A stretch of 64,000 nucleotides of DNA, from NCBI RefSeq assembly GCF_013167455.1, contig NZ_CP038328.1, one strand, 5' to 3'. The position numbers were made by a program. Shown one piece after another: positions 48,001 through 51,000 of this stretch; position 1 is the first letter of the stretch, and each line of letters begins with the position of its first letter. The DNA comes from Escherichia coli O157:H7 (GTDB lineage Bacteria > Pseudomonadota > Gammaproteobacteria > Enterobacterales > Enterobacteriaceae).

Positions 48001-51000
48001 TGAACATTGCCATATTATTCAGATTGGAAATGCCCTTGACCGGTAATTCGTCTTCATCACGACTGGCACCAATGAGCGTACCTGGAGCTTGAGGATTTCC
48101 GGTATTTTTAATCAGGCAAGGGATCTGGAACTGGGCGATGGGGGTAATGGTGCGGGGGTGAAGAACTTTAGCGCCGAAGTAGGAAAGCTCCATCGCTTCC
48201 TGGTAGGACATCGATTTCAACAACCTCGCATCGGGCACCTGACGCGGGTCGCAGGTATATACCCCGTCAACGTCCGTCCAAATCTCGCAACAATCGGCGC
48301 GTAAACAGGCAGCCAGCACCGCCGCGGAGTAGTCGGAACCGTTGCGTCCAAGTACCACCAGTTCGCCTTTTTCATTACCGGCGGTGAAACCTGCCATCAG
48401 CACCATGTGATCAGCCGGAATACGACTTGCCGCAATACGGCGGGTGGACTCTGCAATATCGACAGTAGATTCGAGGTAATGCCCCACTGCCAGCAGTTTT
48501 TCGACCGGATCGATAACGGTAACGTTGTGACCGCGCGCTTCTAATACGCCGGCCATAATGGCGATCGACATTTTCTCGCCACGGCAAATCAGCGCAGCGT
48601 TAATGCTATCCGGGCACTGCCCTAACAAACTAATGCCATGCAGGACATGTTTTATTTGGGCAAATTCCTGGTCGACGAAAGTTTTCAATTGCGCCAGCGG
48701 GAATCCCGGCTGGGCGGCGGCGAGTCCCGTCAGAAGTTCGGCAAAAATACGTTCGGCATCGCTGATATTGGGTAAAGCATCCTGGCCGCTAATGGTTTTT
48801 TCAATCATCGCCACCAGGTGGTTGGTGATTTTGGCGGGGGCAGAGAGGACGGTGGCCACCTGCCCCTGCCTGGCATTGCTTTCCAGAATATCGGCAACCC
48901 GCAGAAAACGTTCTGCATTTGCCACTGATGTACCGCCGAACTTCAACACTCGCATGGTTGTTACCTCGTTACCTTTGGTCGAAAAAAAAGCCCGCACTGT
49001 CAGGTGCGGGCTTTTTTCTGTGTTTCCTGTACGCGTCAGCCCGCACCGTTACCTGTGGTAATGGTGATGGTGGTGGTGATGGTGGTGGTAATGGTGGTGC
49101 TAATGCGTTTCATGGATGTTGTGTACTCTGTAATTTTTATCTGTCTGTGCGCTATGCCTATATTGGTTAAAGTATTTAGTGACCTAAGTCAATAAAATTT
49201 TAATTTACTCACGGCAGGTAACCAGTTCAGAAGCTGCTGTCAGAGACTCTTTTTTTAATCCACACAGAGACATATTGCCCGTTGCAGTCAGAATGAAAAG
49301 CTGAAAAATACTTACTAAGGCGTTTTTTATTTGGTGATATTTTTTTCAATATCATGCAGCAAACGGTGCAACATTGCCGTGTCTCGTTGCTCTAAAAGCC
49401 CCAGGCGTTGTTGTAACCAGTCGACCAGTTTTATGTCATCTGCCACTGCCAGAGTCGTCAGCAATGCCATGGCTCGTTCGCGTAAAGCTTGCAGTTGATG
49501 TTGGTCTGCCGTTGTGTCACTTTTCGTCGGTTGTTGTATTAATATTGCTAATTGATAGCAATAGACCATCACCGCCTGCCCCAGATTGAGCGAAGGATAA
49601 TCCGCCACCATCGGCACACCAGTAAGAACGTCAGCCAACGCTAACTCTTCGTTAGTCAGCCCGGAATCTTCGCGACCAAACACCAGCGCGGCATGGCTCA
49701 TCCATGAAGATTTTTCCTCTAACAGCGGCACCAGTTCTACTGGCGTAGCGTAGTAATGATATTTCGCCCGACTGCGCGCAGTGGTGGCGACAGTGAAATC
49801 GACATCGTGTAACGATTCAGCCAGTGTCGGGAAAACTTTAATATTATCAATAATATCACCAGATCCATGTGCGACCCAGCGGGTGGCTGGCTCCAGGTGT
49901 GCCTGACTATCGACAATCCGCAGTTCGCTAAACCCCATCGTTTTCATTGCCCGCGCCGCTGCCCCAATATTTTCTGCTCTGGCGGGTGCGACCAGAATAA
50001 TCGTTATACGCATATTGCCACTCTTCTTGACCAAATGACCGCGAACAGGGTGATCACTGTCAACTTATTACGCGGTGCGAATTTACAAATTCTTAACGTA
50101 AGTCGCAGAAAAAGCCCTTTACTTAGCTTAAAAAAGGCTAAACTATTTCCTGACTGTACTAACGGTTTAATTGTTAAAAAATGCTACATATCCTTCTGTT
50201 TACTTAGGATAATTTTATAAAAAATAAATCTCGACAATTGGATTCACCACGTTTATTAGTTGTATGATGCAACTAGTTGGATTATTAAAATAATGTGACG
50301 AAAGCTAGCATTTAGATACGATGATTTCATCAAACTGTTAACGTGCTACAATTGAACTTGATATATGTCAACGAAGCGTAGTTTTATTGGGTGTCCGGCC
50401 CCTCTTAGCCTGTTATGTTGCTGTTAAAATGGTTAGGATGACAGCCGTTTTTGACACTGTCGGGTCCTGAGGGAAAGTACCCACGACCAAGCTAATGATG
50501 TTGTTGACGTTGATGGAAAGTGCATCAAGAACGCAATTACGTACTTTAGTCATGTTACGCCGATCATGTTAATTTGCAGCATGCATCAGGCAGGTCAGGG
50601 ACTTTTGTACTTCCTGTTTCGATTTAGTTGGCAATTTAGGTAGCAAACATGCAGACCCCGCACATTCTTATCGTTGAAGACGAGTTGGTAACACGCAACA
50701 CGTTGAAAAGTATTTTCGAAGCGGAAGGCTATGATGTTTTCGAAGCGACAGATGGCGCGGAAATGCATCAGATCCTCTCTGAATATGACATCAACCTGGT
50801 GATCATGGATATCAATCTGCCGGGTAAGAACGGTCTTCTGTTAGCGCGTGAACTGCGCGAGCAGGCGAATGTTGCGTTGATGTTCCTGACTGGCCGTGAC
50901 AACGAAGTCGATAAAATTCTCGGCCTCGAAATCGGTGCAGATGACTACATCACCAAACCGTTCAACCCGCGTGAACTGACGATTCGTGCACGCAACCTGC

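Follow-up and report, generated by a model that had tools for sequence, protein, structure and literature searches.

A rare 25-codon length allele of the thr operon leader in Escherichia coli O157:H7

The thr operon leader peptide of the O157:H7 strain analysed here is encoded by 25 codons, two fewer than in other O157:H7 genomes and four more than in E. coli K-12. The locus is, we believe with some confidence, the ribosome-mediated transcription attenuator of thrABC in E. coli O157:H7, and its thrL a rare length allele that would have arisen by slippage, as a contraction from 27 to 25 codons. The window referred to throughout is the whole 64,000-nucleotide stretch of contig NZ_CP038328.1 that was analysed; the features of the thr locus located below all lie on its minus strand.

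The leader peptide and its attenuator

The thrL open reading frame occupies 49036-49113. Read directly from ATG to TGA and translated from the minus strand, it specifies 25 codons, 11 for threonine and 5 for isoleucine, just as a sequence-only reading of this DNA had claimed; the K-12 leader given there for comparison (21 codons, 8 Thr and 4 Ile) is also correct (MG1655, NC_000913.3, 190-255). Both NCBIfam equivalog models of the "thr operon leader peptide" recognise the peptide above their cut-offs: NF007329 scores it at 39.4 bits, where 27 is required, and TIGR02077 at 30.7 bits, where 22.95 is required. The 12 nucleotides by which the window leader exceeds that of K-12 form an exact direct repeat of ACCACCACCATC, so that the tandem duplication proposed earlier is borne out; its plus-strand form, TGGTGATGGTGG, is a rotation of the unit GGTGATGGTGGT in which the proposal had been phrased. 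The first copy of ACCACCACCATC (49078-49089, codons 9-12, Thr-Thr-Thr-Ile; TRF period 12) coincides with the place to which the 12-nt gap in the alignment with O55:H7 CB9615 maps. The second, an exact tandem copy (49066-49077, codons 13-16), is extra relative to K-12 and O55:H7. At 49060-49065 there is a single ACCATT (Thr-Ile) unit, which is present as two tandem copies in other O157:H7 genomes. TRF describes the codon run as a repeat of period 12 with 3.2 copies, 96% matches and a score of 69, the highest of any tandem repeat in the entire window.

The RNA features of a thr attenuator surround this frame. The Rfam Thr_leader model RF00506 matches 48981-49100 over its full length (model positions 1-118), scoring 113.5 bits where the gathering threshold is 55. 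The minimum-free-energy structure (RNAfold) contains a predicted 1:2 (protector, or pause) hairpin at 49025-49116 (-24.8 kcal/mol): its 5' arm, 49116-49087, carries the AUG together with the earliest Thr/Ile codons, its 3' arm is 49053-49025, and its 33-nt apical loop, 49086-49054, contains the length variation. The region 2 core, GGUGCGGGCU (49038-49047), shares sequence with the final codons of the leader and with the UGA stop, which at 49036-49038 lies inside and adjacent to it. Region 2 is fully complementary to the region 3 core, AGCCCGCACC (49003-49012), and the 2:3 duplex has 10 perfect base pairs (-20.9 kcal/mol). Region 3 can thus partner region 2, as antiterminator, or region 4, as terminator; the latter is an intrinsic terminator, the thr attenuator proper, at 48982-49017 (A6-GCCCGCAC-loop-GUGCGGGC-U8; -23.2 kcal/mol). 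This 3:4 hairpin is also seen in the Rfam structure line and in a terminator scan, which placed it on the plus strand because A and T runs flank the hairpin. The ATG of thrA is at 48955, 27 nt past the U-tract. thrA (aspartate kinase/homoserine dehydrogenase I) is an intact frame at 46493-48955 (NF006959, 1398 bits), and thrB (45559-46491) and thrC (44272-45558), both open reading frames named from the annotation of a 99.97%-identical O157:H7 region, come next. The RF00506 score, the Thr/Ile-rich frame, the mutually exclusive 1:2, 2:3 and 3:4 pairings and the position upstream of thrABC all mark the locus as an attenuator.

The promoter and transcription start of thrL are presumed to lie at 49155-49192, with a presumed -35 element TTGACT at 49192-49187 placed by alignment with K-12; we take ~49155 to be the equivalent of the K-12 start site at position 148. 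A sigma-70 consensus scan returned no promoter match at this site, so that the placement follows K-12 by analogy only. Between the presumed start and the U-tract, the codon run is the one place where the window's leader transcript departs from that of the K-12 attenuator (b0001). Both have the same start codon, end the frame with the GNGAG tail and a UGA lying in region 2, form the same 2:3 and 3:4 pairings and precede thrABC; they differ in codon number (25 in the window as against 21), in composition (11 Thr and 5 Ile as against 8 and 4) and in the size of the 1:2 loop (33 as against 21 nt).

Attenuation of the K-12 thr operon was reportedly first described in papers by Gardner and Lynn. By analogy with K-12, the window leader is inferred to work in the same manner. 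With charged Thr- and Ile-tRNA plentiful, the ribosome would traverse the codon run to the UGA within region 2 and, by covering region 2 there, would allow 3:4 to form and transcription to end ahead of thrA. A ribosome stalled in the codon run would leave region 2 free to form the 2:3 antiterminator, and thrABC would be transcribed; with no translation at all, 1:2 would form and termination would follow. A model of the thrL attenuator and a ThrL-Luc reporter have been presented for K-12 (PMC4132733), and only for the K-12 allele is termination known to be relieved in vivo by threonine or isoleucine limitation (PMC4132733).

Relatives of the strain and the direction of change

The earlier reading had singled out the added Ile-Thr-Thr-Thr unit as the peculiarity of this genome. 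The unit is extra relative to K-12, but the 12-nt duplication is fixed in the O157:H7 clone: the second copy of ACCACCACCATC is common to every O157:H7 genome examined. The standard O157:H7 thrL (WP_000822720.1; 27 codons) is the K-12 leader with both the 12-nt duplication and a duplication of ACCATT, and is found in PV15-279 (L002), Sakai (ECs_0001), CDC#03-98 and FRIK1989. It shares with the window leader its background, its 12-nt duplication and all of its sequence outside the codon run, and differs in reading Thr-Ile-Thr-Ile where the window, one ACCATT fewer, reads Thr-Ile. Since the 12-nt duplication is clone-wide, what sets the strain apart is one missing ACCATT unit.

The surrounding DNA is otherwise that of ordinary O157:H7. 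A 24-kb query round the locus is ~100% identical to many O157:H7 genomes and spans 24,006 nt in them per 24,000 nt of query. Compared with Sakai over 49.3 kb, the window has 5 SNPs, lacks 6 nt in thrL and differs by 5 nt in a repeat near 2757; compared with CDC#03-98 over 36.9 kb, it has 4 SNPs and the same 6-nt gap; and compared with O55:H7 CB9615, whose thrL has 21 codons in the K-12 form, it has 36 SNPs and the 12-nt thrL gap. Its nearest relative is FRIK1989, from which, over 35.5 kb, it is separated by a single SNP, an insertion of ISEc8 and the 6-nt difference in thrL. Two SNPs in msyB, at 38282 and 38470, are both matched exactly by FRIK1989 only; one of them is common to three further O157:H7 strains, among them ECP19-598 and 17B6-2, in which the 24,000-nt query spans 24,006 nt, corresponding to 27 codons.

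These relationships bear on the direction of change. The window allele is the exact one-step form between the O55:H7/K-12 and the O157:H7 alleles, and the strain's base at 30598 is that of O55:H7, not the one found in Sakai and CDC#03-98. Both facts would suit a lineage that had retained an ancestral intermediate, from a stage when the 12-nt duplication had arisen but the 6-nt duplication had not (21 to 25 to 27 codons). FRIK1989, however, has the same base at 30598 and both derived msyB SNPs, yet its leader has 27 codons, and an intermediate preserved in this strain would require the identical ACCATT duplication to have arisen at least twice. The comparison with FRIK1989 led us to reject the intermediate, and a retained ancestral form is highly improbable. 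Because 27 codons are found in FRIK1989, in two of the three next relatives (ECP19-598 and 17B6-2) and in the deeper O157:H7 branches alike, parsimony favours the contraction: the strain appears to have lost one ACCATT unit (27 to 25 codons), although the argument for direction relies on few SNPs within ~50 kb. The history would then run as follows. The O157:H7 clone started from a 21-codon leader of the kind found in O55:H7 and K-12 and reached 27 codons by acquiring ACCACCACCATC and ACCATT; this strain later dropped one ACCATT to arrive at 25. The Thr/Ile run (ACC/ATY) is a short imperfect tandem repeat, whose length could shift in in-frame units by replication slippage.

Leader lengths in E. 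coli and the Enterobacterales

Three allele-specific queries of 144-162 nt were run against 5,426 complete E. coli genomes; 5,424 of these matched, and lengths were assigned by identity bands. About 5,000 genomes (~92%, including at most 29 partial matches) have 21 codons. Longer leaders make up ~7.7% of the total: 23 codons in ~71 genomes (~1.3%; one, L014, was read directly and has TTITTTTTITITT), 24 codons in a single genome (L004), 25 codons in 21 genomes (~0.4%) and 27 codons in ~327 (~6%). At most 274 of this last group are of the O157 type; the remainder are of a second type (L007, TTITTTITITTTITITT). RefSeq labels the leader of this second type "hypothetical protein". This comparison of thrL across genomes, of the kind that the sequence-only reading had suggested, places the window leader above the commonest length of 21 codons and, contrary to the emphasis of that reading, two codons below the 27 of its O157:H7 relatives.

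The 21 genomes with 25 codons have three nucleotide versions of the leader. Ten encode the window's own 25-residue peptide (WP_032212562.1), one has the form ...TITITITITT (L006), and ten have the L006 form with the substitution A24V (the L003 type). The WP_032212562.1 genomes are non-O157 E. coli (e.g., O150:H6 FEX669, 2018-05-5CC and AF14). Their peptide is identical to that of the window, but in the three genomes read Ile12 is encoded by ATT rather than the window's ATC, in unrelated strain backgrounds and with different thrA alleles. The ATT codon is consistent with duplication in another register (ACCACCATTACC) or with a further point change, and the differences of background and thrA allele indicate that this allele and that of the window probably arose independently. 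The window's exact nucleotide allele occurs in 0 of the 5,424 complete E. coli genomes (best match 99.4%), and a scan of JGI metagenome contigs for it gave zero matches. An exact-peptide look-up in a collection of 15 billion proteins failed to return even the common 27-residue O157:H7 peptide, because such tiny frames are rarely called. Relative to the collections searched, the novelty lies in the nucleotide allele and in its O157:H7 background; the peptide is already in RefSeq.

A sequence this rare invites the suspicion that the true leader has 27 codons and that one ACCATT was dropped in assembly or polishing. The exact allele stands alone among 5,424 complete genomes with ~270 O157:H7-type leaders, it is absent from the metagenome contigs, and the 6-nt difference sits within a tandem repeat. 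But exactly one in-frame unit is changed, in an array of ~40 nt that any read would span, whereas the usual sequencing errors are 1-2-nt homopolymer indels. Real length alleles exist at thrL in many independent genomes, the window has no other private indel relative to FRIK1989, and its 5-nt difference from Sakai is common to many O157:H7 genomes. An artefact of assembly or consensus is accordingly unlikely.

The alleles that were read differ by 6, 9, 12 or 18 nt of tandem repeat, and all keep the reading frame and the GNGAG-stop tail. The copy number of the repeat thus differs among strains, giving 21, 23, 24, 25 and 27 codons; no leader shorter than 21 codons was seen among the E. coli alleles examined. 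Nor do the alleles behave as a rapidly varying or switching locus. No frequent change is evident among close relatives, the ~270 O157:H7-type leaders being identical at 27 codons with the window as sole variant; there is no sign of on/off frameshift switching, every allele examined differing by a multiple of 3 nt. The thrL variation found here is ordinary repeat slippage in a known switch. A limited literature search for thrL length polymorphism, thrL tandem repeats or thrL in O157 found no paper describing it.

Beyond E. coli, the 3' end of thrL, ACCACAGGTAACGGTGCGGGCTGA, is present in at least 120 species-representative Enterobacterales genomes. The leader has 21-23 codons in 113 of 120 species, and 112 of the 120 have an unbroken Thr/Ile run of 9-12 residues before GNGAG; the longest such runs in the set are 15 (Erwinia sp. 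JUb26) and 13 (Intestinirhabdus alba). The corresponding run is 11 residues in K-12, 15 in the window and 17 in standard O157:H7. On this comparison the expanded E. coli leaders are recent and derived, at or past the long end of the order-wide range.

Codon number and the set-point of the switch

Length variation in the thrL run could, in principle, affect attenuation, and the earlier reading had voiced the concern that a longer run would alter the spacing to the 1:2, 2:3 and 3:4 structures. That concern is largely answered by minimum-free-energy folding (RNAfold) of six allele types, in all of which every insertion falls in the apical loop of 1:2, with the stems and the position of the stop codon unchanged; the alternative hairpins are preserved, as that reading had proposed to check. 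The loop grows from 21 nt (K-12) through 33 nt (window) to 39 nt (O157), at little energetic cost: the total free energies are -49.3, -48.8 and -48.6 kcal/mol, respectively, and those of the 1:2 state without region 3 are -25.3, -24.8 and -24.6 kcal/mol. The region-2 pairing probability is 0.79 in all three, and the 2:3 and 3:4 pairings are the same across alleles. The RF00506 score is 122.1 bits for K-12 and 112.7-115.8 for the longer alleles, with the window at 113.5; the longer alleles score lower because the 5' arm of the model slides onto a later repeat. The idea that the RF00506 consensus is itself longer than the K-12 leader was rejected: K-12 fits it best.

With all stems and the stop-codon position unchanged, the switch should still work; what may vary is its set-point. 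The theory of control-codon number is provided by the Elf-Ehrenberg race model (PMC1183508), in which read-through reaches 50% at a codon-translation rate that scales with control-codon number. By this model, at any assumed transcription distance, the threshold of the window leader is predicted to be ~1.37 times that of K-12 and ~0.88 times that of standard O157:H7, more codons giving more read-through. A profile of residual pairing points the other way. When the ribosome stalls on the added codons, which lie far upstream, the remaining ACC repeats can still pair with region 2 in a shifted register, at -13 to -15 kcal/mol, and this residual pairing could favour termination. As the two are opposed, we do not commit ourselves to a direction of effect. 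An equilibrium model in which a ribosome is parked at each codon in turn has 2:3 winning without region 4 and 3:4 winning with it, for all alleles; since it separates no alleles, any effect must be kinetic. The models taken together suggest that the window attenuator is probably a working one, with at most a modest quantitative shift of its set-point, of either sign.

Effects of control-codon number have been considered for other attenuators: the leu leader (Bartkus et al. 1991, as cited in PMC1183508) and, in a comparison of one operon with another, his and trp (PMC1183508). The leu, his and trp cases are engineered series or comparisons between operons; the thrL series is natural and within one species.

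Whether selection has acted on this series is a separate matter. The codon run might be regarded as a mutable "knob", with the change from 27 to 25 codons, and that from 21 to 27 in the clone, selected for resetting thrABC expression. The at least eight E. coli length alleles, all in frame and none below 21 codons among those examined, are compatible with such adaptive tuning, as are the narrow range of 21-23 codons in most Enterobacterales species (113 of the 120), which suggests that length matters, and the scaling of the threshold with codon number that the race model predicts (PMC1183508). Against it, one variant among ~270 O157:H7-type leaders implies that mutability is low compared with true contingency loci or the loci used in MLVA; purifying selection against frameshifts explains the in-frame bias equally well; and the models point in opposite directions. 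We think it improbable that either change was selected, and regard the window case as the loss of one repeat unit from a textbook regulatory element, with an effect that is probably small.

The practical value of the finding lies mainly in annotation and strain typing: leaders of more than 21 codons are real in E. coli. The broader notion that the thrL Thr/Ile run is a natural tuning element driven by slippage, in which O157:H7 fixed the longest leader seen (27 codons) and this strain stepped back to 25, is doubtful, but it would have consequences. If it is true, the O157:H7 expansion might reflect selection on the supply of threonine or isoleucine in its niche. Because the 21-27-codon series spares every RNA stem, it would offer a clean test of the long-standing theoretical claim that control-codon number sets attenuation sensitivity and set-point; if leader length sets the threshold for derepression of thrABC, leaders of 21, 23, 24, 25 and 27 codons would constitute a ready natural experiment on attenuator sensitivity.

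Leader alleles and the thr attenuator

The 25-codon thrL of E. coli 99-3165 (locus L003, positions 338-415) is a distinct allele containing …TTTITITITITT…; an allele-specific query against complete E. coli genomes places alleles of this type in about 10 genomes, at a 98.1% match. The L003 leader carries an Ala24Val substitution (GCG to GTG) lying inside the region 2 core, which overlaps the last leader codons and the UGA and pairs either with region 3 or within the 1:2 helix. This substitution would convert a C-G pair to U·G in the antiterminator and likewise in the 1:2 helix, making the L003 allele a candidate for a genuine alteration of attenuator strength. 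The attenuator hairpin of the window (48982-49017) lies between an A6 and a T8 tract, and it is because of these two tracts that the terminator scan assigned it to the plus strand; the hairpin could in principle terminate transcription in both directions.

A second type of 27-codon leader, with an 18-nt duplication (TTITTTITITTTITITT), is found in E. coli 2016C-3878 and others (L007, 338-421). RefSeq labels it 'hypothetical protein' despite a profile-scan score of 41.7 bits for its peptide, above the NCBIfam thr leader cut-off of 27; the naming looks like an annotation inconsistency.

Leaders in other Enterobacterales

Our survey of Enterobacterales species-representative genomes (L016-L135) disclosed an upstream in-frame ATG in about 12 species; initiation there would make the leader 7-9 codons longer (MTEHTTSM… or MITEHTTSM…) and give it three further Thr codons. 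The same survey yielded an enterobacterial thrL 3' end on a contig of 1.5 kb (L135) that had been assigned to a Haemophilus parainfluenzae bin; this contig is probably mis-binned.

Repeats and small RNA elements

The short (AACAT)n repeat between caiT and fixA (window 2745-2757) is one 5-nt unit shorter than its counterpart in O157:H7 Sakai (Sakai 46552-46556). The window version is matched at 100% in many other O157:H7 genomes, so the difference is ordinary repeat polymorphism within the clone. At 34815-34853, TRF detects a weak tandem repeat with the 12-nt unit CGCCAAAAATAT (3.2 copies, 70% matches). Rfam matches to the sok antitoxin beside mokC/hokC (sok at 33588-33740), tpke11 (35125-35202), ES003 (15331-15383), naRNA4 (62179-62257) and ES036 (43657-43699) are all expected in this region of E. 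coli.

Markers of the FRIK1989 lineage

In FRIK1989, the nearest complete-genome O157:H7 relative, a copy of ISEc8 that is absent from the window separates yaaX from thrC. Two msyB SNPs, 189 nt apart at window positions 38282 and 38470, are both common only to the window and FRIK1989 among complete genomes; one of the two also occurs in three other O157:H7 strains. These SNPs are useful lineage markers.
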